The notes under the pieces: model-generated
What the model saw: the letters and a program-made list of their open reading frames with translations, nothing else
What the model was told of the DNA's origin: nothing
The model's database searches: none
Translations under genes and position numbers: made by a program
In this document: piece by piece, positions 2,459 through 44,345 of the stretch
How the letters are laid out: each line of letters begins with the position of its first letter
How positions within the stretch are numbered: position 1 is the first letter of the stretch
NCBI GenBank assembly: GCA_022842645.1
Contig: JALHPE010000003.1
Coordinates: 10,445-74,444 of the forward strand
Direction: 5' to 3'
From: Minisyncoccota bacterium
GTDB lineage: Bacteria; Patescibacteriota; Minisyncoccia; Phycocordibacterales; UBA2100
Length of the DNA stretch: 64,000 nt

Positions 2459-3727
2459 TCAACGCCCTTCAAGAACGTCGATTTCCTTCTGAAACTTATC
2501 CGCAAGACCCATCACCCCGTCGCCATAGAACGCATACGCGGGTTTGTTGGCATTTCCCCAACCGGCAAAGTAGCGCAGTGCCGCAAGACGCTCCGACGCG
2601 CGGGTGCCCACATCGGCGCCGTTGTCAGCCATAAGAAGAGAAGAAGCGAAAATGGCAGTACGCGCGTCCCATGGACTTGGCGGCTTATTGCCCGTGAGTT
2701 CTCCAATGCGCTCTTTATACATCACCCACGTCGAAGGAATGAATTGTGCGGGGCCCATGGCACCCCCCCATCCATACCATGGCTTCTTCGAGACTTTTTG
2801 TGCGTCGGGATCAAGCCCGAGTTCTTCCATTAAGGTCTTAAAGACAGGGACATCACGCGTGGGGTGCATGTCGGTCTTCCAATTTCCTGTGCCCACGTTT
2901 TCTCCAAGATTCGACTCCTGCGCGAGGACGCCAAGAATAAGCGCGGGTCGGACGCCTGTGACTTCAGATGCTTCTTTGGCATACTCATACGCCTTTCCAA
3001 ACGGAATCGCGCCGGAATCGCGCAGCTCGAAGAGGCGCGCACGAATCTCATTTGCTGTTTTTGTTTGCTCGGCAATAGTACGCTGATACACGGTTTCCTC
3101 ACCTTTTGCACGCCTCACCAGATCTTGTTTTTCATCTTCTGTTCTCTGGAGTGCTTTTTGTTGGAGCACCTGCAGCTGTCGCAGCTCCTCTTCTTCTTGC
3201 TGCTGCGTAAAAAGGGCTTCTTTACGATCGGCCAAATCTTTACGTGCGATCGCCATTTCTTTGAACGCCGTATCGAGTGCTTCCTGCACTGTCTGAAAAT
3301 TATCAACTTCTACAAAGAGATCGGAAAGCGAGCCGTTTAAGACAAGTTCCACAAGCGTGGTGTCGTCGATCTCACGTGTTCTGCGTATCATCTGGGCAAC
3401 TGATGTCTGCCCTTCCGCGACTTTTCTGTCGAGAATCTTAATTGCAGCTTCTTTGTCGGTGATACCGTCCGTAAGACGCTTGATTGCAAGATTACGCTGA
3501 CGAATTTCGAGTTGCGCCTCTTTAACCTGACTATCGAGAATCGCGACGTCGCGCTCAAGCGACTGACGCTCTGCCTGCTTCCCTGCCAAGACGGATTTAT
3601 TCTGAGCGATTTCACGCTCAACTTCTGCAAGTTCTTGCTCAAGCGCAGCGCGCTCTTCGGGAGTCAGCGCCGCAAAAACGAAAAGCGGCGCGCAGAACAA
3701 TATGCATACCACGAGCGCAAACCTCAT
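2459..3727 (-). CDS. membrane-anchored coiled-coil lytic transglycosylase (MltB/Slt-like C-terminal domain)
   Basis: N-terminal hydrophobic segment (MRFALVVCILFCAPLFVFA), then a long heptad-rich coiled coil. C-terminal AQESNLG...GPAQFIPSTW motifs are typical of lytic murein transglycosylases. Start chosen at the internal Met preceding the signal-like segment. Confidence 0.5.
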   Translation of the reverse strand: MRFALVVCILFCAPLFVFAALTPEERAALEQELAEVEREIAQNKSVLAGKQAERQSLERDVAILDSQVKEAQLEIRQRNLAIKRLTDGITDKEAAIKILDRKVAEGQTSVAQMIRRTREIDDTTLVELVLNGSLSDLFVEVDNFQTVQEALDTAFKEMAIARKDLADRKEALFTQQQEEEELRQLQVLQQKALQRTEDEKQDLVRRAKGEETVYQRTIAEQTKTANEIRARLFELRDSGAIPFGKAYEYAKEASEVTGVRPALILGVLAQESNLGENVGTGNWKTDMHPTRDVPVFKTLMEELGLDPDAQKVSKKPWYGWGGAMGPAQFIPSTWVMYKERIGELTGNKPPSPWDARTAIFASSLLMADNGADVGTRASERLAALRYFAGWGNANKPAYAFYGDGVMGLADKFQKEIDVLEGR

Positions 3728-3761
3728 ATTGTGTAAGTATACCGCGTGACGCGGGGAGCCA

Positions 3762-4160
3762 CTACTTTGCTGACGCGGAAATCCCAAGCTCCTTACGTAC
3801 GACCTCAACCACCTCCGAGGGAATCATGCTCGCCTTCACCACATACCGGTGTGCCCCGAGATCCTCTGCATGCTTTTGGTCAGCCTCGGTACTCTGATTG
3901 GTGAGTGCAATAAGACGAGCACTCCCCTCCAATTTCTCCTGCTTCACCTTGCTCAAAAAAGAAAAACCATCTTCGCCAGGCATGGCAATATCAAACAGTA
4001 TGGCATCTACCTTTTCCCCCGCGCGCAAGGTTTGTAAAGCCTCTTCTGTTGAAAAACATGGCACGACTGTAAAACCCTCTTGCGAGAATTTAAGCGCATA
4101 CATATCGAGCAGGAATTTGTCGTCGTCAAGAAGGAGTACTTTTTTGCCGGTATCTGCCAT
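3762..4160 (-). CDS. single-domain CheY-like response regulator receiver
   Basis: 132 aa. KVLLLDDD...DIAMPGEDGF...K pattern of receiver domains (acid pocket DD, phospho-Asp, conserved Lys). Immediately upstream of pilB in the same orientation (PilH/PilG-like position). Confidence 0.75.
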   Translation of the reverse strand: MADTGKKVLLLDDDKFLLDMYALKFSQEGFTVVPCFSTEEALQTLRAGEKVDAILFDIAMPGEDGFSFLSKVKQEKLEGSARLIALTNQSTEADQKHAEDLGAHRYVVKASMIPSEVVEVVRKELGISASAK

Positions 4161-4168
4161 AGGTGATG

Positions 4169-5908
4169 TTATTGTGTCGTAGTTTCATCAGGTATACTTT
4201 TTTCTTCGCTTGAGGCTTCGCCTGCCGGAATTTCTGTGACAGCCACTTGATCTGCCTCATCGCCGAGAAGCAATGGGCTCAGCGTGTTAACTTCCGAAAA
4301 TGGCACCCTCTTTGCGAACGCCTTGAGTATAGCATCCTCACGCATCGTGCGCATACCTTGACTTCGTGCGGCAGCCCACAGTTTAGAATCCACCGGGTTC
4401 GTAAGCACGATTTTCTCAATCTCTGACGACATCTCTAAGACCTCAAACACTGCTGCGCGCCCTCGCATGCCGGTAGGACATGCTGCAGAGCGTTCTGGCT
4501 CATACACTTCGTTTGGTATGGGAAAACGATATTTTGCGGGAATCGTCGACAGGTCTTTTTCGATCGCTGTACGATCGCTTGCAGAAAGTGGCACCGGTTT
4601 CCCCGTGCCGTCACAGAGCGTACGCACGAGACGCTGTGCCATAGAGAGTATCAGCGTCGAAGGAATGAGGTACGGTTCGACACCCATGTCGATAAGACGC
4701 GGAATGGTACCCACGGCATCGTTAGTGTGAATCGTCGAAAGCACGAGGTGACCAGTGAGTGCTGCTTGCATCGCGAGCTTCGCCGTCTCACCATCGCGAA
4801 TCTCACCCACCATAATGATGTCGGGATCTTGGCGAAGCGTGGTGCGCAGACCATTTGCAAAAGTGTACCCAATTTCTGGTCGCACCTGCGACTGAATGAT
4901 GCCCTCGACGTGATACTCAATCGGATCTTCGAGTGAAAGAACATTCTGATGTTCACGATCGAGTTCGGCGAGCATGGAATAGAGTGTGGTGGATTTACCT
5001 GAGCCTGTAGGGCCTGAGATAAGAATGAGACCGTGCGGCCGCTTGATTGCCTCACGGATCAGACCTAAATCGCGCTCAGAAAAACCTAAATCGCCGAGTG
5101 GAATAAATCCCTGATTACGATCCAGAATACGCATCACGATCTTTTCTCCCATGTAGGTGGGAAATGTCGAGACACGAAAATCGATCTGGCGGTCGTCGAA
5201 TGATGCGGAAAAGCGACCATCCTGTGGCTTGCGTCGTTCATCAAGACGGATCGAGGAAAGCACCTTCACACGTGCAATGATTGCGCGGTGTGTTTCCATA
5301 GGGAGGACGACGCTCGTATGCAATTCTCCATCGACACGATAGCGCACACGCACCCCTGCACCAGTCGGTTCGATATGAATATCAGATGCCTTGCCATCAA
5401 TGGCATAGCGCAAAATCGTGGAGACAATTTTTACTGCAGGAGCATCTTCCCGAATAGTGTCGTTCCCTCCTCCTTGCCCCGCGAGATTCCCGAGCTGAAG
5501 CAAATCTTCTTCGTCGGAAAATTCCTTGGGAGCATCGTCTTTCTTTCGCACCTGCTCTTCGCTTTGTAAATCGGAGAGTGCGCGATCGACGTCCCCTCCA
5601 AGCCCTCGGTACATTTGTATGACTTTTTCGATGTCAGAATCCGGAATCTTAAAGAGCTTAAATGGCATCCCTGTTTTACGCGTGATGAAATTTAAGGCAT
5701 CGATAGCCGCGATGTTATCGGGATCTACAATACCAATCTCCAAAACTCCCTCCACGACAGCAAGCGGCGCAAAACGATAATGTTCCGCCGACTCTTCGGG
5801 AATATATTTCAATATCTCGTACGGAATCTTTGCCGAACCGAGCGTTCGCTCCGGCAGTGCCGAAGAAAAGCCGGACCCCGTGCCGCGTAAATCGGTGGGC
5901 GGAGGCAT
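4169..5908 (-). CDS. pilB: type IV pilus assembly ATPase PilB (GspE family)
   Basis: 579 aa. Walker A LILISGPTGSGKSTTLYSML, Asp box and His box of GspE/PilB secretion ATPases, N-terminal GspE_N-like region. Confidence 0.85.
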   Translation of the reverse strand: MPPPTDLRGTGSGFSSALPERTLGSAKIPYEILKYIPEESAEHYRFAPLAVVEGVLEIGIVDPDNIAAIDALNFITRKTGMPFKLFKIPDSDIEKVIQMYRGLGGDVDRALSDLQSEEQVRKKDDAPKEFSDEEDLLQLGNLAGQGGGNDTIREDAPAVKIVSTILRYAIDGKASDIHIEPTGAGVRVRYRVDGELHTSVVLPMETHRAIIARVKVLSSIRLDERRKPQDGRFSASFDDRQIDFRVSTFPTYMGEKIVMRILDRNQGFIPLGDLGFSERDLGLIREAIKRPHGLILISGPTGSGKSTTLYSMLAELDREHQNVLSLEDPIEYHVEGIIQSQVRPEIGYTFANGLRTTLRQDPDIIMVGEIRDGETAKLAMQAALTGHLVLSTIHTNDAVGTIPRLIDMGVEPYLIPSTLILSMAQRLVRTLCDGTGKPVPLSASDRTAIEKDLSTIPAKYRFPIPNEVYEPERSAACPTGMRGRAAVFEVLEMSSEIEKIVLTNPVDSKLWAAARSQGMRTMREDAILKAFAKRVPFSEVNTLSPLLLGDEADQVAVTEIPAGEASSEEKSIPDETTTQ

Positions 5909-5910
5909 AT

Positions 5911-6255
5911 CTAATTGCCTCGTGGTTTAGACGAGGTTCCTGCCGTAGGAGTAGTGGTTCCCGACCGCGTGATTGGCAAGAATGGATTCGGGCGACCAAC
6001 CGGCTCAGGCATGATTTGGGTTCCCGTATCCACAAGCCGGAGGAACGCGGGGTCGGAAAGAATCGTTCCCGCAAGCGTAATCGTGCGTAGCTGAAGAAGT
6101 GTCTCAACGACATCACCATCACTCGAGCCCTGCACGGTTAAATCTTGAGTTGTGAGAAGTGGCTCGGGCGTCGTATCGCGGAGGAAGAGATACCAGCCCG
6201 CAAACGCCGCAAGGACACTGCCGAGTATTAGTATGAGTGTTGTGTTATTGGCCAT
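5911..6255 (-). CDS. small single-TM pilus-operon protein (PilP-like position)
   Basis: ORF with internal start MANNTTLILILGSVLAAFAGWYLFL (one TM), Thr/Pro-rich tail. Sits between pilO-like and pilB; 8-bp overlap with the upstream gene. Confidence 0.4.
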   Translation of the reverse strand: MANNTTLILILGSVLAAFAGWYLFLRDTTPEPLLTTQDLTVQGSSDGDVVETLLQLRTITLAGTILSDPAFLRLVDTGTQIMPEPVGRPNPFLPITRSGTTTPTAGTSSKPRGN

Positions 6256-6262
6256 ACGTAAT

Positions 6263-6829
6263 TTATTTGAGCCAGTAGGTGCGGAGCGTGACGTCAAAGC
6301 GGTACAAAGGCTCAGTGCCTTGGGCGCTCAAGTCAGGATCCATACTGAGCTCCACAAGATCAACAATGCGCAAACTATTCTCTAGAGCATTCATAAACTC
6401 CACGAATTTCGGGTACGAACCGCTCGTGGCAAATTTAAGAGTGAGCGAATCGGTTTCATTGTAATCTGCACCAATAACCGCTGCGTCCCCGGTGTTTGCA
6501 GTAAGTCCTTGAGCATCGATGACTACGTTTTGCAGGGCAAAGCCGTGCTTCGATGCGAGTGTGTCGAGATCTAAGACGAGGCGCACATTGTCAACGTGAT
6601 CCGGAAGAAGTTTCTTCAGACGATCAATGTCGACCGGATTGAATGCGTTATATCTCGAGAGCAGTTGCTGTTTCAAACGCTGCAGTTCATCGGCTTTGGA
6701 GAGCGCACTATCATATTCGGTGATTTGTACTTGCATGGCGCGCGCACCGTCATACGCAGGCTTCGTATACATCACAAAGATTGCGACCGATGCAGCAAAG
6801 AGAGCGATAGTAAAAATAATACGCATCAT
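6263..6829 (-). CDS. pilO: PilO-like pilus assembly protein
   Basis: 188 aa, N-terminal TM (IIFTIALFAASVAIFVMY) then coiled-coil and periplasmic domain. Gene order pilM-pilN-pilO. Confidence 0.55.
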   Translation of the reverse strand: MMRIIFTIALFAASVAIFVMYTKPAYDGARAMQVQITEYDSALSKADELQRLKQQLLSRYNAFNPVDIDRLKKLLPDHVDNVRLVLDLDTLASKHGFALQNVVIDAQGLTANTGDAAVIGADYNETDSLTLKFATSGSYPKFVEFMNALENSLRIVDLVELSMDPDLSAQGTEPLYRFDVTLRTYWLK

Positions 6830-7512
6830 AGAGTTTCTGGTGTTCCTTGCGGCTCACCAGCAGGTTCGAGCGGCGTGCCGAACGGTGTGGGGAGTGCGGA
6901 TTCTTCAGTTTGATCTGGCAATGTCACCTGCGCCGCGCGATACCGTAGTTTGGTTGGATCAACCGCAGCAGTAAAATCAAAGCGCACCCCCTCAATAGTC
7001 CTATTGATGTTGGAAAAAATCGGATTAAGAATGAGACCACTTCTCGCTAAAAGATCCGCCTGAAGCGCGATGGAATTGACGCTCTGTGCAACCCCCTGCA
7101 TCGCAATACCCATTTCGGTGTCATTCTGGGCAGTGAAGCTGAAGTTTGAAAACGCGACCGTCTGGAGCGTCAGCTGCTGTAACAGTTCGAAAATATCAGA
7201 GGGAGCAGTGTGCGTCGCAAGCACCTCATCAGCAGCTTTCATACGATCATCAAGACGCGTGAGCTCGCTGATAAGCGCAGGCTCGAATGCTTCTTTCGCT
7301 CGCTGCAGCTGCGCACGCTTGCTCTCCGCAGCAGTCGAGAGGTACTGCACATATAAAAAGACGCCAACTGCGAGTACGACGGAAGCAAAAAAGAGCACCA
7401 ATGAGACGAGGAGCCCGAGATCAGCGCCACCTTTTTGCTCGCGCCGTCCTCCAGCACTCGGCGCCGAAATAGGTGCTTGTGGTATAAACGAAGAACGAAT
7501 GTTTGATTCCAT
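6826..7512 (-). CDS. pilN: PilN-like pilus assembly protein
   Basis: 228 aa, single TM (LVSLVLFFASVVLAVGVFLYV) followed by coiled-coil. Directly downstream of pilM with 4-bp overlap to pilO. Confidence 0.55.
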   Translation of the reverse strand: MESNIRSSFIPQAPISAPSAGGRREQKGGADLGLLVSLVLFFASVVLAVGVFLYVQYLSTAAESKRAQLQRAKEAFEPALISELTRLDDRMKAADEVLATHTAPSDIFELLQQLTLQTVAFSNFSFTAQNDTEMGIAMQGVAQSVNSIALQADLLARSGLILNPIFSNINRTIEGVRFDFTAAVDPTKLRYRAAQVTLPDQTEESALPTPFGTPLEPAGEPQGTPETL

Positions 7513-7530
7513 AGAAAGTCCCTAACTTTC

Positions 7531-8682
7531 CTAGCCCTTCCTGAGTTCACGTAACGCGAGTCCGACCGGCACTGCAAAACCAGGGCCGATCGACTGAAGC
7601 ACTTGATCAAGAAATGCCGGTGCTTCAGTACGACTAAACGGATTCGCAATTTCCACCTGCGCGTGGAGCGCCTGATTCGCAAATCCTTGAAGTCCAGGAA
7701 GCGATGCGCCACCACCGCACAAAAGCACGTGCGACACATCTTTATTGTATCGCTTCCCGTAGCTCAATAGTACCCTATCAGCCTCTCCAAAGAGGCGCTC
7801 GAGTGTGGATAGAAGAGACTGCTTCACTTTATCATTTTCATCGACAGAAAAAGCTGAGGAACTGGTGAGCCCGCGCTCGCGCTTCACGCGCTCCGCTTTC
7901 TCAAAATCCCACGAAAGCGAGCGCGCAAGATGTTCGGTCATTTGTTGGCCACCGACCGTCGCGAGATGCGTCATGCGCACTACCCCGCGCTCGACGATAT
8001 ACATTTTTGTTGTTGAGGCACCCAAGTCAATCACCAGAACTGGTGCCAAACCATGGCCGAGGGAGCTCCGAATTGCACTGAAGATTTCTATTTCATAAAA
8101 ACGCGTGGAAAGTCCGGCGCCCGCGGCGATCGTCTGAAAATTGCGCACTGTATCGTTGTGAATGGCAACGAGAAGCACTTCTTGCCCCTTACTCTGAAGC
8201 GCCGTTTTGCCTTGAATACGATCAAAGGCCGCATCGCTTCCTTCTTCGGGCGGAATAACGAACCAATCAAGCATAACTTCCGAAACTGGCACTGGAATAT
8301 ATTTACGCGCCTCGATCGGAATCATTTGTTTTAAATGTTCCGGGTCAGTTTTGGGGAGATCGATAATCGAAACAAGGCTCGAAGAGAATGGTATCGACAT
8401 TCCCGCAACCTTTGCCGTGACATTCGCCTCCCGCATGAGGTCGAGCAGTGCTTCGGTTAAGGTTTCCGGCGAGAGCTTTACTGCTTTCCCCACTGGTTCT
8501 TTCGCATAGGGAGCAAGCGCGATTTCGCCATAGGTCTCGAGGACTGCCGCACCATGCGCAGAACGAAGTTGCACCACTTTTGCAGACGCCGCGCCTATGT
8601 CGACACCAATAACGCTACTCTCGGTTTTTCCCGTGAGCGCGGCAGAAAGCTTTTGCGTGAGCGTCCCTAACGATAACGCCAT
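7531..8682 (-). CDS. pilM: type IV pilus assembly protein PilM (actin-like ATPase fold)
   Basis: 383 aa. N-terminal VIGVDIGAASAKVVQL typical of PilM/FtsA-like proteins. Two actin-fold halves. Confidence 0.8.
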   Translation of the reverse strand: MALSLGTLTQKLSAALTGKTESSVIGVDIGAASAKVVQLRSAHGAAVLETYGEIALAPYAKEPVGKAVKLSPETLTEALLDLMREANVTAKVAGMSIPFSSSLVSIIDLPKTDPEHLKQMIPIEARKYIPVPVSEVMLDWFVIPPEEGSDAAFDRIQGKTALQSKGQEVLLVAIHNDTVRNFQTIAAGAGLSTRFYEIEIFSAIRSSLGHGLAPVLVIDLGASTTKMYIVERGVVRMTHLATVGGQQMTEHLARSLSWDFEKAERVKRERGLTSSSAFSVDENDKVKQSLLSTLERLFGEADRVLLSYGKRYNKDVSHVLLCGGGASLPGLQGFANQALHAQVEIANPFSRTEAPAFLDQVLQSIGPGFAVPVGLALRELRKG

Positions 8683-8731
8683 AGAGACAAGTATACCGTA
8701 CTTTGTATCGTGTGCGTCGTATGAAAAGCGA

Positions 8732-8765
8732 CAACTGGCTCAAATGGCGCCGATTGAGCCAGTTG
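8732..8765. repeat. ~34-bp palindromic element (copy 1), overlaps the RT stop codon
   Basis: CAACTGGCTCAAA TGGCGCCG ATTGAGCCAGTTG: 13-bp arms with one mismatch. A second 7-bp hairpin CACACGC/GCGTGTG lies at about 8776-8796. Confidence 0.5.
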
Positions 8766-9789
8766 CATATATGCGCCTCACACGCGCCTGAAGCGTGTGC
8801 GCATTGCCATGGGAGAGTAGCCCCAGATATGAATCGCGGACATGTTTATTCTCAGTGTGTGCGGCACAGTTCCGCAACATCCGTCGCTTCGTAGTCGTGC
8901 GCAGGACGCAATGGTCGGGAAAATGCACCCAGCCGAGGAAATCAACTCCAGACGCAAGAGTTGAAATTGAGATTTTGTTAGGATGCAGTTCGAGCTTGAG
9001 TGTCTCGCGCAGAAATACTGCTGCATGCGGCAGCATTTCTGTGAGTTCTCTGCGATCATGCGATAGAAAGACGAAATCATCCGCATACCGAATGTAGTAT
9101 CGTACCCTCAAGTGGTGTTTTACGAATTGGTCGAATTCGTTCATATAGATATTGACGAGAAGTTGCGAGGTAAGATTGCCGAGCGGCAGTCCCTTGCTAG
9201 GTACTCCCGAATCAAAGCTTGCGATAACGCGTCCGATGAGATCGACGATACGTTTGTCGCGAATGTGAGACGCAATAATGCGCATAAGCGTTTCCTGGTC
9301 GATCGAAGCAAAGAATTTCCGTATGTCGCATTTCAAGACCCAACACGTATGCGTATGGTTGCGCGAGACTTTGTATGCAAACGAGCGAAATCGATTCATC
9401 GCATGATGCGTGCCTTTCCCATTTCGACATGAGTATGAGTCCGCGATGAAGGTGCGGTCGAAGAATGGGTAGAGCTTGCGATAGAGCGCATGATGCAGGA
9501 GTCGGTCACGCACTGTGGCTTTGTGGATGTTTCTTGGCTTTGGGTCGGAGATGTTGAAGGCGCGGTACGGACCGTGCACGTATGTTCCTGCAACCAAGTC
9601 ACGATTGAGCGCAAGAATATTATCCATCAATCGATATTGAAATTCCTGCACATCTTGTTTCTTTCGCTTCCCGCGCACGAATTTCTTCCATGCCGCAAGG
9701 AGATTCGGAGCGGAGATGATATCCTCGTAGGTATGAGCGAAGACAAGATCCACACACCTAAGCCTGCCCCCCCCCTCACCTTTTTGCAA
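8740..9789 (-). CDS. DGR-type reverse transcriptase
   Basis: 349 aa. RT motifs: VLKCDIRKFFASID (motif A), LPLGNLTSQLLVNIYMNEFD (DGR-type [I/L]GxxxSQ instead of group-II/retron QGxxxSP), YIRYADDFVFL (YxDD), LELHPNK, FLGW thumb. No maturase/endonuclease domain. The true start may be the downstream GTG at 9753, because a C9/G9 homopolymer lies in codons 5-8. Confidence 0.85.
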   Translation of the reverse strand: MQKGEGGGRLRCVDLVFAHTYEDIISAPNLLAAWKKFVRGKRKKQDVQEFQYRLMDNILALNRDLVAGTYVHGPYRAFNISDPKPRNIHKATVRDRLLHHALYRKLYPFFDRTFIADSYSCRNGKGTHHAMNRFRSFAYKVSRNHTHTCWVLKCDIRKFFASIDQETLMRIIASHIRDKRIVDLIGRVIASFDSGVPSKGLPLGNLTSQLLVNIYMNEFDQFVKHHLRVRYYIRYADDFVFLSHDRRELTEMLPHAAVFLRETLKLELHPNKISISTLASGVDFLGWVHFPDHCVLRTTTKRRMLRNCAAHTENKHVRDSYLGLLSHGNAHTLQARVRRIYATGSIGAI

Positions 9790-9795
9790 CCGAAG

Positions 9796-10167
9796 CTCGT
9801 GCCCATAATTGAAAAAACTAAGGGTGCATACAAACTCTGGATACAGGCGCGGAGAAATATGCCGCGAACGGAACAGTTTGGGATTGGCAAGAAAACTGAC
9901 GATCTTTTTTTGATGCTTATGGAAACACTGCGCCGCGCATCATTTGCGGCGCATCAAGAGAAAATACCACTTCTCACTCATGCGGTTGGGCTCACGGATT
10001 CGCTCCGCTTTTTCCTTCAGATCGCATGGGAAAATGTTTTGGTCCGTCAGAATCAATACATTCCCTTAGCAACTGAAATCGAAGAGATTGGTCGCATGAT
10101 AGGTGGATGGCGCAAGGGTCTCGTTGCAAAAACCCCGCTTGAAAAAAGCGGGGAAAGAAAAGAGTAG
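9796..10167 (+). CDS. avd: Avd-like accessory variability determinant (four-helix-bundle protein), encoded antisense between TR and RT
   Basis: About 123 aa from GTG 9796 (ATG at 9859). N-terminal AYKLWIQA resembles the LxVWQKA start of Avd/TIGR02436 proteins. C-terminal ATEIEEIGRMIGGWRKGL resembles the conserved Avd C-terminal helix (E..RML.GLI). Stop codon TAG 10165-10167 abuts the TR. Orientation is opposite to RT/TR, which is atypical. Confidence 0.5.
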   Translation, partial: LVPIIEKTKGAYKLWIQARRNMPRTEQFGIGKKTDDLFLMLMETLRRASFAAHQEKIPLLTHAVGLTDSLRFFLQIAWENVLVRQNQYIPLATEIEEIGRMIGGWRKGLVAKTPLEKSGERKE

Positions 10168-10282
10168 CGGGAAGCAACCTGGTTGCCAGCATTCCACTCG
10201 TTCGGATTCGTCACGGAGTTCGCGAACAAGCTCCACCCACCGTTGTCGGAGTTCCAGTTCGCGTTCACGGCCCAGAGTGCTT
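10166..10282 (-). repeat. DGR template repeat (TR), sense on minus strand
   Basis: 117 bp, 111/117 identical to 10614-10730. All 6 mismatches have T in the TR on the plus strand (A on the sense strand): 10244, 10253, 10259, 10264, 10265, 10282. The first 78 bp (10166-10243) are identical. Confidence 0.75.
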
Positions 10283-10535
10283 TGTGCGTAGTGCCATCTT
10301 GTATCACCACAGTTCGACCCGCCAACTGGCGGATCTACGCCGCTGTATCGCATACGGGACCTCGAAGTCCTCCAGCATCACGCACCGATTCTTATCTTTT
10401 TTGAGGCATTCGCTCGTACGCTTACGCGAGACGCATCCAGCGCAATACTGACGACACGAATGAACGAGGTGCTGCACAGAAGTCGCGACCGCCGCACTCA
10501 AGCTATCCTCAGGGGTTAGTGTATCAAAAGTAAAA

Positions 10536-10574
10536 GACCCTCTAAATCCTGCTTGCGCGAAGATTCAGAGGGTC
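10536..10574 (-). promoter_or_regulatory. hairpin just downstream (sense) of the VR, candidate DGR homing-enhancing stem-loop
   Basis: GACCCTCT (10536-10543) pairs with AGAGGGTC (10567-10574), 8-bp perfect stem and ~23-nt loop. About 40 bp 3' of the VR end on the sense strand, as described for DGR VR-flanking cruciforms. Confidence 0.4.
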
Positions 10575-10611
10575 AAAGTATCTCAAACCCAAATTTCTCA
10601 GGGTTCAAGAA

Positions 10612-11241
10612 TCAGCGGGAAGCAACCTGGTTGCCAGCATTCCACTCGTTCGGATTCGTCACGGAGTTCGCGAACAAGCTCCACCCACCGTCGTCGGAGT
10701 GCCAGTGCGCGAACACGGCCCAGAGTGCTCCATTCTTGTCACGGACGTAGAAAATATTGGCGTAGCCATTCGTAAGAAGGTTGCCCTTCTCGCCGTTCGG
10801 TTGTTTCTCCAACATCGTCCACAGGTCGGCGAGGTATGTTTCGTGCGCCTCACCGAGCTCCTTGATGATCGGCCCGTCGACCGATGCCTTGCGAAGCGTG
10901 TGAAGCTTCAGCTCGCCTGCCGGAACGTTTTCCTCGACCTTCGCGAAGTTATCGCGGAAATTGTCCCAGACGAATGCGATCTTCACCGCTGCCTTTCGGC
11001 TGGTGTCGACCTTGAAGTGGTCTGCGGCGACAAATCGGCCGGCGCCGGATACGACAACGGTTGCGACGAAGTCGAGAAGATTCGATGCGGACTTCTTGCC
11101 GTTCGCACCAAGCGAATGGTTAAGAAAGCCCTGCATGTAGCTTCCGTCGATACTTCCGTCTTCGATCTGCCGGAACAGATCTTTGAGCTGAGAGGCCGTC
11201 ACATTGGACGAACCCTCGACGACAACTTTCTGAGCTGCCAT
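10612..11241 (-). CDS. DGR target (variable) protein, 209 aa, C-terminal VR; no signal peptide
   Basis: C-terminus ...KNGALWAVFAHWHSDDGGWSLFANSVTNPNEWNAGNQVASR is encoded by the VR. TR-encoded version ...ALWAVNANWNSDNGGW... has AAC/AAT (Asn) codons at the variable positions. N-terminus lacks a signal peptide or TM. Confidence 0.7.
   Translation of the reverse strand: MAAQKVVVEGSSNVTASQLKDLFRQIEDGSIDGSYMQGFLNHSLGANGKKSASNLLDFVATVVVSGAGRFVAADHFKVDTSRKAAVKIAFVWDNFRDNFAKVEENVPAGELKLHTLRKASVDGPIIKELGEAHETYLADLWTMLEKQPNGEKGNLLTNGYANIFYVRDKNGALWAVFAHWHSDDGGWSLFANSVTNPNEWNAGNQVASR
10614..10730 (-). repeat. DGR variable repeat (VR) at the 3' end of the target gene
   Basis: Counterpart of the TR. VR bases at the mismatch positions are C, G, G, A, A, C on the plus strand (sense-strand TR A -> G, C, C, T, T, G). 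Ends exactly at the target stop codon (10612-10614). Confidence 0.75.
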
Positions 11242-11342
11242 TGGTTTTTCTCCTTAAAGAGCATCCGGCACTATTGCCGAAGTGAAAACATCATACCACG
11301 CTACCACCCAGTTTGCAAGAGCGTAAAACGGGGCTCAAAACA

Positions 11343-11390
11343 GGGCTGTTTCAGCCCCACTGGCTCAAACGGCGCCGTTTGAGCCAGTTG
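11343..11390. repeat. small hairpin plus ~33-bp palindromic element (copy 2), between the wHTH pseudogene and the DGR target
   Basis: GGGCTG TTT CAGCCC (11343-11357), then CACTGGCTCAAA CGGCGCCG TTTGAGCCAGTTG (11358-11390). About 90% identical to copy 1 over ~36 bp. Confidence 0.5.
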
Positions 11391-11399
11391 CCATTGGGG

Positions 11400-11932
11400 C
11401 TAGGTTAGCGCGTAAAATGGTCTTTTCTGCTTCCCCACCCTGGTGAGGCGACCAGTTGTGGCAAGCTCGCGCACATAGCGGCTGGCTGTTGCATCGGAAA
11501 CTCCGAGAAGAATCTGCACATCGTTGTTGGTAATTTTCCCGCGCTCGCGTGCGAGGGCGACGATTTTTCGAGACGTGCGCGCTTTTTCCCAGCGCGTTTT
11601 TCAGCTGCGTAAGCGCGCCATGTTGCAATGCTTGGAGGAAGAGGTGCGGGCGGAGGGGTGAGGGGCACGGATATGGATGATGCCGAGGGTAGAGTGGCCG
11701 GCTCTGCATGTAAAACTGGCACCTCGGATTCAGTAGCACTTTCAATGTGGGACTTACGAAGTCCCACATCAGTCGCAAGGGGCTCCATGACGGGTTTCGG
11801 AAACTCGTCATTCACCTCTGGTGTAGATTCGGGAGCTGGCTCTTGTGCAACTTGTAGGGGTACTACAACCGGCTCCTCTACTACTTCAGGCACTGGTGTC
11901 GGTTCTATAGGCACGCTCGCCTCAGCGGTCAT
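11400..11932 (-). pseudogene. proline/acid-rich N-terminal ORF plus C-terminal winged-helix HTH in a different frame (candidate frameshifted DNA-binding protein)
   Basis: Frame B (11405..11932) encodes a Pro/Glu-rich low-complexity peptide ending ...AEKRAGKKRARLEKS. A second frame ending at TAG 11400-11402 encodes RKIVALARERGKITNNDVQILLGVSDATASRYVRELATTGRLTRVGKQKRPFYAL, a wHTH like Fic/RecG-type C-terminal domains. It is preceded by an in-frame TGA and has no start codon. The frames meet around two A5/T5 runs near 11584-11600. Confidence 0.35.
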
Positions 11933-16102: not shown

Positions 16103-17725
16103 TTGCATTACTCGTTAGTCCAATTGCATATGGCAAAGAAAAAGTCGGTGTCCCCTAAGGACATCTTCGAGCGACTTCTCAAAGATCGCTCAGCTCGCAT
16201 CGCGGCAGTGCGCCAGTCGCACCTATTATTCTTCCACATCTACTTCTCACGATACGTAAAGTACGGCACAGCACCGTTCCACAAGGAGATGTTTGAGCTT
16301 ACTGAAAACGTAAAGATACCACTCGCCGTTATCGTTGCTTTCCGCTCGTCGGGAAAATCAACGATTGTTACCACTTCATACCCACTATGGTCGATACTTG
16401 GCGAACAACAGAAGAAGTTCGTGCTCATTATCTCCCGTGTCCAATCACAGGCACAGCAACATCTTCGCAACATTAGACATGAGGTTGAGAGTAACCGGAT
16501 ACTGGCCAGTGACCTTGGACCTTTTGATTCAGAGCACGGACAGTTCGGTCTCCAGGCTCTTGTGTTCAAGAAGCTCGGAGCGAAAATCATGATTGCATCA
16601 GTCGATCAAAGTATTCGTGGACTGCGTCACTTGGAACATCGTCCTGACCTCATCATTCTTGATGACGTTGAAGATACGGCATCGGTGAAAACCCAAGAGA
16701 GTCGCAATTCGGCGTGGCAATGGTTCACAAGTGAGATACTCCCCATCGGTTCTGAAGGTACTAGGATCTTCGCTGTTGGAAATCTCCTTCATCGCGATTC
16801 ACTTCTGAAGCGCATCGAGACACAGATCGGGTTAGGCACGCTCGGCGTGTATCGTGAATATCCGATTGTGAAAGACGGCGTGCCGCTTTGGACTGCGAAG
16901 TATCCAGACGCAGATGCAATCGAAGCCGAGCGCAAACGCATCATGGATCGCGTAGCATGGCATCGTGAATACTTGTTGGAGATTCTGCCCGATGATGACC
17001 AACTTATTCATCCTCAATGGATTCAGCGATACGATACGTTGCCGACAGAACGACCTCGCCACACTCTCATTGGACTCGACCCAGCAATCTCAAAAGAAGC
17101 AAGTGCAGATTGTACGGCAATGGTTGGTATATGGGTGTATGGCTCAAAAGAAAATACAAGAATATATATCTACCCGCAGATTGTGAACAAGCGACTCACG
17201 TTCAACGAAGCGGTTCAAGAAGCTGAGGCACTCTCTCATGCCGTTGGAAACGGCAGCCGTGCCCACATATACGCAGAAAAAGTCGCCTACCAACAAGCAC
17301 TCATCGAACACCTCAAAAGCCGAGGCAATCCTGTTGACGGCATTTCCCCGGGAGGCACTGACAAGCACGCACGACTCGCGTCAGTAACGCATTTCTTCGA
17401 AACGGGCAAGGTGTTTTTTCCCAAAACCACTGTTGCTGAGGTCTTGATCAACCAGCTTCTTGGCTTTGGAGTTGAAAAGCATGACGACCTCGTCGATGCC
17501 CTCACACTCGCGCTCCACCAAGTTATGTACAAGGATCGCTATGGAGGCGCAATCGGCGTCCTCTGGAATACGCCACCTCGCGAGGAAGAGATGATGAACC
17601 TCAGTAGTCGAGAAAAGTTCGTCATCATGGAAAAGTGGCGTGAGAATAGGAACAATAATCCGTTTCTCATCAGAGGTGGCAGAACACCCATGCCCGACGA
17701 CTGGAAGCCACGCTGGGATCGGTAA
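16103..17725 (+). CDS. phage terminase large subunit-like protein (paralog 1)
   Basis: 540 aa. N-terminal ATPase with deviant Walker A VIVAFRSSGKST and Walker B LIILDDVED. C-terminal RNase-H-like nuclease with IGLDPA ... HDDLVDALTLAL (Terminase_6-type). About 45% identical to the ORF at 21070..22578. Confidence 0.7.
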   Translation: MHYSLVQLHMAKKKSVSPKDIFERLLKDRSARIAAVRQSHLLFFHIYFSRYVKYGTAPFHKEMFELTENVKIPLAVIVAFRSSGKSTIVTTSYPLWSILGEQQKKFVLIISRVQSQAQQHLRNIRHEVESNRILASDLGPFDSEHGQFGLQALVFKKLGAKIMIASVDQSIRGLRHLEHRPDLIILDDVEDTASVKTQESRNSAWQWFTSEILPIGSEGTRIFAVGNLLHRDSLLKRIETQIGLGTLGVYREYPIVKDGVPLWTAKYPDADAIEAERKRIMDRVAWHREYLLEILPDDDQLIHPQWIQRYDTLPTERPRHTLIGLDPAISKEASADCTAMVGIWVYGSKENTRIYIYPQIVNKRLTFNEAVQEAEALSHAVGNGSRAHIYAEKVAYQQALIEHLKSRGNPVDGISPGGTDKHARLASVTHFFETGKVFFPKTTVAEVLINQLLGFGVEKHDDLVDALTLALHQVMYKDRYGGAIGVLWNTPPREEEMMNLSSREKFVIMEKWRENRNNNPFLIRGGRTPMPDDWKPRWDR

Positions 17726-17764
17726 AAGACTGTGGAATACGGGGTTGGCGTGAGGGTGTAGAAT

Positions 17765-18523
17765 GTGCGTATGGAAACACAGACACGAACACCAGTGCCA
17801 ATGCTCGGCATCGTTGTGGAGGCACGGCGAGAAGCACAGCGTACCGTTGAAACGATGAATCGGGCATTGCAGCCGACACTACGAGTGCTCAACAGCGACT
17901 TCATGCGAAACTTGATGTCGATGGCGAACGCTGCCAATCGTCATATGGAGCCATTGCTTCGATTTCAAAAACAGATGGATAGCGTGCTCGGAGAACACCG
18001 TGAGGCACTGGGGTGCGCACTTTCTCCCTTCGTATCGGCGGCATACACGCACGCGACTCACCCTGAAACCATTCACTACATACCTGCCCGCCCCGTTATC
18101 AAGTCAGAACCACGTGAGATTAATGTCGAATCGATAGCGGAAGAGTTAGTGGCAGTGTTCGCAAAAAAAGGTTTGGTACTCATTGAGCGCACAACCTTTG
18201 CTCAAATCGACCTCGTATACAACCGAAAGAATCGGACACTTGAATACAGCGCAGGTACCGCGCACCGCGCTACAAGTTTCCAAGATACGGAAAGCAACAA
18301 GCGTCGTGAATTGTTCGATACTCTCGTTCAAACAAAGCGGAAAATTACAGGACGCGAGCTGAAAAAGATACTTGGCTGCCCCAACACTGATGCAACGTAC
18401 AAAGTCGTTCAGGGATTGAACCGAAAAATGAAGAATGAGCTTGGTCTCACCGTTAATATCGTGGATGGTAGTGGCCGAGATGGCTACCACATTCACAAAA
18501 CCATCGCGATCCACCCGAAGTAA
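17765..18523 (+). CDS. hypothetical protein with C-terminal OmpR/PhoB-like winged-helix DNA-binding domain
   Basis: 252 aa. C-terminal ...ITGRELKKILGCPN...NIVDGSGRDGYHI resembles OmpR-type wHTH. No receiver domain. Confidence 0.4.
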   Translation: MRMETQTRTPVPMLGIVVEARREAQRTVETMNRALQPTLRVLNSDFMRNLMSMANAANRHMEPLLRFQKQMDSVLGEHREALGCALSPFVSAAYTHATHPETIHYIPARPVIKSEPREINVESIAEELVAVFAKKGLVLIERTTFAQIDLVYNRKNRTLEYSAGTAHRATSFQDTESNKRRELFDTLVQTKRKITGRELKKILGCPNTDATYKVVQGLNRKMKNELGLTVNIVDGSGRDGYHIHKTIAIHPK

Positions 18524-18686
18524 CATCTACCCACACATCTGGAGTGTGGATAGTGATTAAAAATGGCTCTGCATAAGGGTCTTTTTTCTATGGAGTCTCC
18601 AGTGAGTAGGTATGTGTTGTGGGGGCAGAAAATGGTCTGCTTGTAATGCAGGCCTTGTGTCTGTTTACCAGATTAGCAACACATAT

Positions 18687-19961
18687 ATGGCACAAAAATT
18701 AGCATGGCGCACGGTCGACAAAAAGATATCCGACCTCGTACCGAACATAAAGAACCCGCGCACGATGTCCCCGAAGCAGGTCGACGATCTTAAACGGTCG
18801 CTCAAGAAATTCGACTTGGTCGAGCTACCTGTGGTTGACACCGACAACACCGTAATCGCAGGGCACCAGCGCCTCATGGTGCTCAAACTCCTCGGTCGCG
18901 AGCACGAATCTATCCCCGTGCGTCTACCCAATCGCAAGCTCACCCAAAAGGAATACGATCAGTACCTCCTCGGCAGCAACCGCATCCACGGCGACTGGGA
19001 CTGGCAGGCACTTGCCGACAATTTCGACATTGGAACGCTTCTCTCAAGCGGCTTCGATGACACCGACCTGACCCACATCTTCGACGACTTGGAAGTCGAG
19101 GACGACGAGTTCGATGTCGACAAAGAACTCGAAAAGATTAAAAAGCCGGTCACCAAGTCCGGTGAGATGTTCCAGCTCGGTACGCACCGCATCATTTGCG
19201 GCGACAGCACGGATCCCAAGGTGCTCAAGAGATTGATGGGTGGCAAGAAAGCAAACTCCATTCTGCAAGATCCGCCATACAACATTTCCCTCGACTACAA
19301 CAAAGGCATCGGCGGCAAGCGCAATTACGGTGGCACCGTCGATGACGCGAAGCCAGACAAGGAGTACAAAAAGTTTCTCAAGACGGCACTAGAGAACACC
19401 CTGTCGGTGCTTGAAAAAGACGCACACGTATTCACGTACTGCGATCAGAAGTACATCTGGCTCTTGCAAACGCTCTACGCCGAACTTGGCATCGCTAACA
19501 AACGTGTATGCCTGTGGGTAAAGAATAATTCAACCCCCACGCCGCAAGTTGCCTTCAACAAACAGTACGAGCCGTGCGTGTATGGCACGGTCGGCAAGCC
19601 GTACTTGAGTGAGAAGGTGTTGAATCTTTCAGAAGTTTTGAACAAAGACATCGGCACCGGCAACCGCACATTGGAAGACATCTACGACATGATCGACATT
19701 TGGTTAGTAAAGAGATTGAACGGCACCGACTACCAGCATCCCACCGAGAAACCCCCGATGCTTCATGAGAAAGCTCTGCGACGCTGTACGAAGCCGGGCA
19801 ATATCGTGCTGGATTGCTTTGGTGGCTCGGGCAGTTTGCTCATCGCCTGTGAACAACTCAAACGCTCCGCGTACTTGGTCGAACGCGAGCCGATATTCGT
19901 TGATCTCGTCATCCGCAGATATGAAAAACTCACCGGACAAAAAGCAAAAAGACTCCGATAA
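18687..19961 (+). CDS. ParB-like nuclease domain fused to N6/N4 DNA methyltransferase
   Basis: N-terminal LVPNIKNPR...AGHQRL (ParB/Srx fold). Methyltransferase motif IV ILQDPPY followed by C-terminal motif I VLDCFGGSGS (beta-class order). Start set at internal ATG 18687. Confidence 0.75.
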   Translation: MAQKLAWRTVDKKISDLVPNIKNPRTMSPKQVDDLKRSLKKFDLVELPVVDTDNTVIAGHQRLMVLKLLGREHESIPVRLPNRKLTQKEYDQYLLGSNRIHGDWDWQALADNFDIGTLLSSGFDDTDLTHIFDDLEVEDDEFDVDKELEKIKKPVTKSGEMFQLGTHRIICGDSTDPKVLKRLMGGKKANSILQDPPYNISLDYNKGIGGKRNYGGTVDDAKPDKEYKKFLKTALENTLSVLEKDAHVFTYCDQKYIWLLQTLYAELGIANKRVCLWVKNNSTPTPQVAFNKQYEPCVYGTVGKPYLSEKVLNLSEVLNKDIGTGNRTLEDIYDMIDIWLVKRLNGTDYQHPTEKPPMLHEKALRRCTKPGNIVLDCFGGSGSLLIACEQLKRSAYLVEREPIFVDLVIRRYEKLTGQKAKRLR

Positions 19962-23405: not shown

Positions 23406-23764
23406 AGCTTTGAGAAAACACAAAGCCCGCCACCAGGAGGGTTTTTAGGCCCCTACTAGGGTTTCCCCTAATAACGCGTTCAACGCCCTGAATGACGGGT
23501 TGTCTATGTTGAACGCGATTCGCGACCATGCCGCCGTTTCCGAGGGTTTAGGTCGTTGCTCTTTCGAGCCGATATTGGTTGTGTAAAGAGCATGATAGCT
23601 CGAAAACAAGCTACCGTACAAGACCCTAGCTTAGTAATCGGAGGTTGCGAAGGGTTACCAACAGCTGGACTTTCAGAGAAAGTATCGCTTGGTATATCTG
23701 ACTCTCAGAAAGATTTTAATTACTCAACTTCTGAATATAAACATCGTGTCTGCGTTATCTATTT

Positions 23765-43817: not shown

Positions 43818-44281
43818 GAAAGCTCGCGAAGCGCGGCAAGTGCGTACGCGCGCGTCGTGGGGTAGATATCCGCTTCCTCCAATTCTTCCTTAGTGAGCCA
43901 TCGTGTCTCGACACCATCTTCAGGTCGTAACGTGCCGCCAACAACTTTTCCGAAATATGTGAAATCGATGTGCTCATGCGTCTCATTGAACGCATGTCGA
44001 TTAAGGAATTTTGGTGGGAGGATGTCGCTGCTTTCATTTTTCAATTCTGGGAGTTGCGAACCTCCGATAAGCTCGATATCAAATCCAGTCTCTTCTTTGA
44101 CTTCTCGAATTGCCGCCTCGAGCGGTCCTTCGTCGAGCTCGATGTGCCCTCCTGGTTGCAACCATTTCCCAAGCTTCTTGTGCAGATGCAAAAACACTTT
44201 GCCCTCGTGCACGATAAATACGCTCGCAGTGAAGTCTATTTTTTCGTGGATGTGTGCCATGAAGTATTTTAGTACGCCCAC
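43814..44281 (-). CDS. Nudix hydrolase
   Basis: Nudix box GGHIELDEGPLEAAIREVKEETG. 4-bp overlap with the downstream gene. Confidence 0.8.
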   Translation of the reverse strand: MGVLKYFMAHIHEKIDFTASVFIVHEGKVFLHLHKKLGKWLQPGGHIELDEGPLEAAIREVKEETGFDIELIGGSQLPELKNESSDILPPKFLNRHAFNETHEHIDFTYFGKVVGGTLRPEDGVETRWLTKEELEEADIYPTTRAYALAALRELS

Positions 44282-44345
44282 TAGGAATCGAACCTAGGTA
44301 CACCGTGTATAAGACGATTGCTCTACCATTGAGCTATGGGCGCAT
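44276..44345 (-). tRNA. tRNA with anticodon UAU (Ile-type)
   Basis: Manual fold: acceptor GCGCCCA/TGGGCGT (G1-U72 wobble), D-arm GCTC-AATGGTA-GAGC, anticodon stem ATCGT/ACGGT, loop CTTATAC (anticodon TAT), T-arm CTAGG-TTCGATT-CCTAG. CCA not encoded. Confidence 0.6.

Follow-up and report, generated by a model that had tools for sequence, protein, structure and literature searches.

No natural protein diversifiers are more extreme than diversity-generating retroelements (DGRs), and the Candidate Phyla Radiation (CPR) is among the taxa most enriched in them; DGRs of CPR bacteria were reportedly first described by Paul et al. in 2017. In 90% of CPR DGRs the template region (TR), the accessory gene avd and the reverse transcriptase (RT) gene are arranged as TR-(avd)-RT, termed architecture B3, and the variable regions (VRs) of the targets are placed in 'unknown VR' classes UVR1-6 or left ungrouped, with their folds unassigned (Wu et al. 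2018, PMC5758913). Targets of CPR DGR clade 2 are without transmembrane (TM) segments or known domains, and the look, site of action and ligands of CPR variable proteins have been named as open questions (Roux et al. 2021, PMC8144416). Here we describe a DGR in a 64,000-nucleotide stretch of a Minisyncoccota bacterium contig (JALHPE010000003.1, positions 10,445 to 74,444; the whole stretch is referred to as the window, and coordinates count from its first nucleotide), with its target gene at 10612..11241 on the reverse strand (-). The locus shares with the CPR/Patescibacteria DGRs (B3, clade 2) the order of genes, in which a reversed avd separates TR and RT, as well as the host range, the C-terminal VR and a target without TM segment, signal peptide or known domain; there is no qualitative difference between them. 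It is therefore an ordinary member of a known, structurally puzzling class of CPR targets, rather than a new kind of system, and the puzzle raised by a first-pass annotation of this DNA, namely a small target protein with a non-canonical VR scaffold and no signal peptide, is already documented (Wu et al. 2018, PMC5758913; Roux et al. 2021, PMC8144416). Our analysis adds the size and taxonomic restriction of the target family, two confident structural models with no significant Foldseek neighbour, a match in element order to the core of the fold seen in C-type lectins (CLec), a modular N-terminus, rare signal-bearing relatives, and the lack of a conserved partner beyond RT and avd. We consider it probable that the open reading frame (ORF) is the target of a complete Patescibacteria-type DGR whose scaffold is a CPR-specific ligand-binding domain (either new or a very divergent minimal CLec) that is not Sec-exported and carries an N-terminal module for docking or localisation.

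The VR (10614..10729, (-)) makes up the last 39 codons of the target gene, corresponding to residues ~171-209, and is repeated in a TR located 448 nt downstream (10166..10281, (-)). Over the 116 nt of the repeat, VR and TR are 96% identical, with 5/5 mismatches occurring at TR adenines (A to T, T, C, C and G). Adding the next upstream codon (AAA versus GGA) to the repeat brings the count to 7/7 mismatches at TR adenines. The repeat core has 2 occurrences in the window, with 0 expected by chance. The avd gene (accessory variability determinant; 9793..10167, (+)) is located on the opposite strand between TR and RT, and in this architecture the sequence that separates TR from RT runs antisense to avd. 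The Avd protein matches PF22296 (E 2.8e-10; 41.1 bits against a cut-off of 40) and phrog_3206, 'Avd protein of DGR' (E 1.9e-17), while the match to NF033474 (E 4.6e-15) is below the cut-off of that family. The DGR RT (8740..9789, (-)) contains the motifs LGNLTSQ and YADD, and matches RVT_1 in Pfam (E 1.8e-25) and phrog_1423 in PHROGs (E 1.3e-104). Given a VR/TR pair with adenine-only mismatches in the company of both Avd and a DGR-type RT, the locus is a complete DGR. It has a single target, as no further VRs were found in the window. An Rfam scan yielded no match at the DGR.

The target ORF encodes 209 residues. A ribosome-binding site AAGGAG (11250..11255, (-)), read directly from the sequence, is found 8 nt upstream of the ATG, and is overlapped by an in-frame TAA stop codon (11254-11256, (-)). 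The latter means that the ORF has no N-terminal extension. Export and TM signals were called using a heuristic based on hydropathy and motifs, with export requiring an n-region and an h-region of >=10 residues, together with one of a cleavage site, a lipobox, an RR motif or GFxxxE. This heuristic identified no signal of the Sec, lipoprotein, Tat, prepilin or TM type in the protein, including its N-terminus. The first 40 residues are polar, with a best 10-residue Kyte-Doolittle mean of 0.71. The sole 19-residue segment with a mean >=1.6 (residues 55-73, mean 1.64) follows 54 charged or polar residues, and is modelled as a beta-hairpin of the folded core with a predicted local distance difference test (pLDDT) score of ~97. 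The ORF, ribosome-binding site, upstream in-frame stop and hydropathy heuristic thus agree with the first-pass description of a 209-aa DGR target without signal or TM segment, and the overlooked secretion signal that it proposed looking for was not found. The VR-encoded tail that it quoted is exact, with the last 33 residues reading FAHWHSDDGGWSLFANSVTNPNEWNAGNQVASR.

The target belongs to a very large unnamed family that is almost confined to Patescibacteria. Searches of Pfam, NCBIfam and PHROGs assigned it to no family, whether FGE-sulfatase, DUF1566, Lectin_C or any other, and the same applies to longer and multi-copy relatives. A Pfam scan of 83 family members similarly provided no FGE-sulfatase, DUF1566, Lectin_C, Ig, Big or fn3 match, so that the suggested profile check against DUF1566 and CLec families is negative for the target and the 83 members alike. 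A word-indexed search retrieved 402 relatives with lengths of ~170-260 aa. No Pfam domain was present in any of them, and where a name is given, in a few cases, it is 'hypothetical protein' from Patescibacteria. Using an exhaustive profile search, 4,032 representatives of 50%-identity clusters were found at E <= 1e-3, and 1,060 at E <= 1e-30. A scan of one genome per GTDB species located relatives in 172 genomes, and the titles of 80 retrieved loci are almost all Patescibacteria (Paceibacterota, Saccharibacteria, Doudna-, Adler-, Berkel-, Wolfe- and Staskawiczbacteria, among others). Only 1 distant relative was found among 2.9 million viral contigs (IMG/VR). Several of the related loci derive from Rifle groundwater metagenome-assembled genomes, which we take to be part of the data behind the Wu and Roux surveys.

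Alignment of the family reveals an N-terminal region of ~40-60 aa, the type of which differs by lineage, followed by a core with a nearly invariant loop (QPNGExGxLLTNGYANIFY) and a C-terminal frame, LWAVxAxWxxxxGGWxVxAxSVxxPxxWxxGxQVFSR, in which x denotes hypervariable positions. The N-terminal module of the window protein (54 aa) gave no candidates when used as a query, and the matches to a profile of the commonest N-terminal module (MKYGxLTLGQxEA..LGGxDG) were limited to 12 very short proteins (30-76 aa), which are probably fragments. In some relatives the whole domain is repeated in tandem within a single polypeptide, in 2 or 5 copies (P0121, 926 aa; P0122, 379 aa; P0132, 340 aa), and several genomes (loci L040, L051, L075 and L002) have two paralogous targets 1-5 kb apart, with or without an RT nearby. 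The sole IMG/VR contig with a relative (IMGVR_UViG_3300012942_000022, positions 5625-10393; locus L087) has the TR-(avd)-RT layout and an RT 64% identical to that of the window; two VRs (5625-5728 and 8255-8358) match a single TR (8968-9071) on this contig.

The cassette, as opposed to its surroundings, is what recurs at related loci. Neighbours were counted by tblastn with the window proteins within 10 kb of the target at the 80 related loci, revealing an RT at 42/80 and avd likewise at 42/80. Where at least 3 kb of sequence is available on both sides of the target, the RT comes directly downstream of it, on the same strand, at 24/46 loci. In these adjacent cassettes avd is reversed between TR and RT in 24/24 cases, and nearly all of the 24 have the TR ~380-490 nt downstream of the VR start. 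The RTs of related loci are 58-64% identical to the window RT. All-against-all clustering of the flanking ORFs of the 80 loci did not reveal any recurrent neighbour besides RT and avd that could represent a secretion or effector partner.

A model of the target was obtained with AlphaFold2 using an 83-sequence alignment. The full model has a mean pLDDT of 86.7, with a confident alpha/beta core (~97 over residues 55-209) preceded by two low-confidence helices (residues 1-54). When residues 100-209 were modelled alone, the pLDDT was 94.9 and the predicted template modelling score 0.87, with secondary structure unchanged, and these residues therefore behave as an autonomous domain. In both models the C-terminal elements as assigned by DSSP consist of a strand (109-116), two helices (122-132 and 137-146) and four strands (162-167, 173-181, 186-193 and 205-208). 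Foldseek comparison of the full model with 350,542 PDB chains yielded no match at E <= 0.001 (best E 1.5), and no significant match was found in BFVD (best E 0.27). The model of the C-terminal domain similarly gave no PDB match at E <= 0.001 (best E 0.59). The best query-length-normalised TM-score against the PDB was 0.34, for SH2 domains, with other weak matches consisting of PAS, lipocalin fragments and monellin/cystatin-like proteins. Neither CLec nor formylglycine-generating enzyme (FGE), C-type lectin-like domain (CTLD) or immunoglobulin (Ig) chains are among the Foldseek matches listed (50 of 89 and 50 of 362), and the structural check thus recovered no standard CLec fold among them. The family profile found no PDB sequence at E <= 10, and hhalign of the family against BPP-1 Mtd gave a probability of 0.1%. 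Using phmmer, the nearest PDB sequence is intelectin-1, residues 43-79 of which align with residues 158-194 of the target at a non-significant E of 0.38, a local match spanning two strands, the GGGW and a further strand. We attribute this intelectin/fibrinogen-related likeness to chance or to a convergent GGGW beta-meander, given the E value and the lack of any fibrinogen-related domain chain among the Foldseek matches listed. An Ig-fold target was also rejected, as the model has two 10-residue helices rather than an all-beta sandwich, and no Ig, Big or fn3 match was found in Pfam.

Mapping of the VR on the model places it on a strand (173-181), a turn, a second strand (186-193), a loop (194-204) and the last strand (205-208). 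The TR contains nine AAY codons inside the repeat (residues 177, 179, 181, 184, 192, 196, 198, 201 and 204) in addition to five partly variable codons, and could by codon count give rise to roughly 10^13 or more protein variants. Family entropy exceeds 3 bits at the AAY-encoded positions 177, 179, 181, 192, 196, 198, 201 and 204, as well as at 188 and 190, while W180, W187 and W200 are invariant or nearly so across the family. By analogy with the general action of DGRs, the TR transcript would be copied by RT and Avd with errors specific to adenines, and the resulting cDNA would replace the VR, recoding the nine AAY and five partly variable codons, within the layout target/VR - TR - (avd, reversed) - RT. 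In the model the variable positions alternate along two neighbouring strands and continue in the loop, and they appear to be held in a fixed frame of W180, W187, W200, G186, P197 and the last strand QVASR. The latter is encoded by the VR 3' end, where sequence variation in the family is lowest. The small soluble alpha/beta domain would thus present one diversified binding face. Proteins of the family have three parts: a helical module at the N-terminus that is short and varies by lineage, a core that is conserved, and a tip that is hypervariable.

A number of observations weigh against this reading of the locus as an active diversifier of a docked binding domain. The 5-7 VR substitutions in the window are all confined to 38 nt at its 5' end, and the remaining 78 nt of the VR, towards the 3' end, are identical to the TR, despite the latter containing 14 adenines in this part. 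In contrast, the VRs of relatives carry 12-24 substitutions each, spread along the whole VR and mostly at TR adenines. With so few substitutions, restricted to the 5' third, recent activity of the window locus is not demonstrated. The TR-like VR possibly reflects a partial TR-to-VR gene conversion, a recent homing event with few errors, or an assembly chimera; an independent Logan assembly has the identical target protein, and SRR28154513, from the source sample, contains the identical gene. Furthermore, an RT within 10 kb is missing for about half of the family members. The geometry of the proposed binding face is derived from secondary structure and sequence periodicity, and a docking or localisation role for the N-terminal helical module is likewise an inference.

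Going by the models, it is plausible that the fold of the target differs from known DGR scaffolds. We do not call it a new fold outright, because the order of the C-terminal elements equals that of the CLec core of Mtd, TvpA and AvpA, and because AvpA itself was unclassifiable until crystallised. It is possible, rather than probable, that the C-terminal ~110 residues correspond to a minimal and highly divergent CLec fold, with the non-canonical look being due to sequence divergence only. In both models the elements follow the beta1-alpha1-alpha2-beta2-beta3-beta4-beta5 order of the CLec core, a correspondence of order only and not of spatial arrangement. The CLec variable proteins Mtd (Bordetella phage BPP-1), TvpA (Treponema denticola), AvpA (Nanoarchaeota) and TaqVP (Thermus aquaticus) have a C-terminal, AAY-rich VR, as is the case here, with fixed aromatics within the VR, a last strand encoded by the conserved VR 3' end and the same order of C-terminal elements. 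The archaeal AvpA furthermore provides a precedent for a CLec in disguise. However, Foldseek matched neither of the two confident models to anything at E <= 0.001, the matches it listed include no CLec, FGE or CTLD chain, and the Pfam, PDB profile and hhalign searches are all negative; no sequence, profile or Foldseek similarity between the target and CLec proteins was found. At ~110 residues and without inserts, the target domain is far smaller than published CLec domains, and its variable residues alternate along two regular strands, unlike those of CLec variable proteins. The VR motif (W-x6-GGW ... P-x2-W ... QV(F/A)SR) also differs from the CLec GGSW ... GFR, and Mtd is a tail-fibre protein, whereas the target has no export signal. 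The Ig-fold DGR targets (Ig1 and Ig2; Wu et al. 2018, PMC5758913) are likewise DGR-diversified binding domains, but the target model is not an all-beta sandwich. The first-pass interpretation is partly borne out as a whole, and its suggestion of a different binding fold is plausible: two confident models and the lack of CLec or Ig among the listed Foldseek matches are in its favour, while the element order also fits a divergent CLec. As a tentative extension, the family could constitute a third DGR scaffold, neither CLec nor Ig, in the form of a compact ~110-residue alpha+beta domain whose variable residues are displayed by one loop and by the outward-facing side of a beta-hairpin. Such a scaffold would be spread over thousands of Patescibacteria lineages and would act without a Sec signal via interchangeable N-terminal docking or export adaptors, to which a lipoprotein or Sec signal is rarely added, or which such a signal rarely replaces.

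Among 334 family proteins, the heuristic flagged 26 N-termini, most of which are amphipathic or glycine-rich helices or doubtful starts. Convincing export signals were found in only 2/334 relatives. P0182 (L088, 227-931) starts with MKKSLVLTLVLALFASFVISGC, a lipoprotein signal with lipobox, and continues into the common N-terminal module; its gene is preceded by a promoter-like match (TTGACA/TAATAT) and an AAGGAGG ribosome-binding site. The two-copy protein P0122 (L089, 1888-3027) starts with MRRLRICRLRVAIVLTLAFTAGANA, followed across the cleavage site by QD, and thus has a Sec signal in place of the helical module. These two export signals imply that the domain can function outside the membrane. 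By the same heuristic ~99% of the members examined have no classical signal, none has a prepilin-type N-terminus, and Tat-like motifs (2/212) are at chance level. The rarity of signals fits a non-Sec route or docking by the N-terminal modules, or alternatively an intracellular role in most lineages.

An intracellular role could take the form of a cytoplasmic diversified sensor that recognises, for example, phage- or host-derived molecules in the cell, with the N-terminal helical module coupling to an effector. The export signal missing from nearly the whole family, the lack of a conserved secretion partner and the position of some cassettes amid restriction-modification, toxin-antitoxin and Peptidase_M78 genes are in line with such a sensor, and 'genuine non-membrane-bound targets' have been left as a possibility (Roux et al. 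2021, PMC8144416). We nevertheless consider it unlikely, as P0182 and P0122 carry real export signals, and the target has no effector domain, with none conserved nearby. The first-pass annotation had linked the target to the adjacent pilus machinery. The window cassette is followed, 58 nt further downstream on the same strand, by pilM, and pilM/N/O/B occupy 4169-8682, which could point to a partner of the type IV pilus, such as a pilus-associated variable adhesin. While a PilB-like ATPase is found within 8-10 kb at 9-10/80 related loci, PilM is present at 5/80 (never immediately adjacent), PilN at 0/80 and PilO at 1/80, with only RT and avd conserved. Since pilus genes are not conserved neighbours at related loci, the adjacency to pilMNO-pilB in the window is incidental, and the link does not hold up. 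The lack of a prepilin-type N-terminus in any member examined also argues against a pilus partner, and the cassette is bracketed by a repeat of its own, consistent with insertion beside the pil operon. A pilus role is thus very unlikely. We regard as extremely unlikely a prophage receptor-binding protein, despite a terminase gene 5 kb away. Genes for a large terminase subunit (16103-17725) and for a DNA methylase are indeed nearby, and the one IMG/VR contig with a distant relative has the same DGR layout. However, this is 1 relative in 2.9 million viral contigs compared with 172 species genomes, the target matches no PHROGs family, relatives are flanked by non-conserved housekeeping genes, and the CPR clade is classed as cellular (Roux et al. 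2021, PMC8144416).

The locus is a clean and compact representative (209 aa, with a confident model) of what looks like a very large CPR target family, with at least 4,000 50%-identity clusters. It makes two questions directly testable: whether DGR diversification always acts on a CLec or Ig scaffold, and whether the variable proteins of CPR bacteria are located inside the cell. A new scaffold would offer a compact binder framework of natural origin in which ~14 positions could be designed; a minimal CLec would extend the rule that 'CLec is universal' to its smallest known form.

The target gene is flanked by several putative expression and structural elements. A sigma-70-like promoter match, TTGCAA-17-TATGAT with a TG element, is located upstream (11290..11318, (-)), and represents a consensus match only. 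The region of 126 nt 3' of the target has a folding z of -5.65. A hairpin with a 10-bp stem (10581..10610, (-)) is found a few nt past the VR stop codon, placed like the hairpin or cruciform downstream of VRs in other DGRs, and transcription of the target gene probably ends at a long hairpin followed by a T-rich tract (10537..10574, (-)). Where the reversed avd ends, converging with the TR, a GC-rich 8-bp hairpin with a T-run (10133..10153, (-)) sits immediately 3' of the TR and has a terminator-like appearance. This may terminate avd, the TR transcript or both, or may be a structural element of the TR RNA.

The repeat that brackets the cassette is a 33-nt palindrome, ACTGGCTCAAAyGGCGCCrTTTGAGCCAGT, for which no strand is assigned. 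Only 2 copies occur in the window, exactly bracketing the DGR: one overlaps the last 8 codons of the RT (8732..8766) and the other is upstream of the target promoter (11359..11391). The copy at the RT end encodes ATGSIGAI followed by the stop codon, and the copy upstream of the target would read ATGSNGAV and stop, like a duplicated RT 3' end. Repeats of 16-33 nt are present at both equivalent positions in 6/34 cassettes (the window and 5/33 related cassettes: L017, L019, L044, L076 and L084), and in L017 and L019 the bracketing repeat overlaps the RT stop codon too. The bracketing repeats may represent a signature of cassette insertion or mobility.

The wider neighbourhood is varied. At one related locus the target is flanked by a D-Ala-D-Ala ligase and a P-type ATPase, and at another by restriction-modification, HigB and Peptidase_M78 genes. 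In the window, the gene upstream of the target (11396-11932, (-)) seems frameshifted near 11545, with the joint at an A5 run; a proline/glutamate-rich N-terminal part is encoded in one frame and a winged-helix-turn-helix-like C-terminus (IVALARERGKITNNDVQILLGVSDATASRYVRELATTGRLTRVGKQKRPFYALT, ending at a stop codon) in another. The large terminase subunit gene at 16103-17725 (phrog_38, E 3e-78) and an N6/N4 DNA methylase gene are both found within 16103-19961, 5-8 kb from the DGR. This region may be a prophage or a remnant thereof, and is not conserved beside the DGR in relatives. The distal end of the pilB-pilMNO cluster encodes an SLT-like transglycosylase (2459-3808) and a 725-aa Kelch-repeat and fibronectin-III protein (221-2398, (-)). 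Further away, an Rfam LOOT RNA match is found at 23438-23554 (-), scoring 65 bits against a gathering score of 46.4, and a tRNA-Ile with anticodon TAT (UAU), an uncommon bacterial way of reading AUA, is located at 44272-44343 (-).
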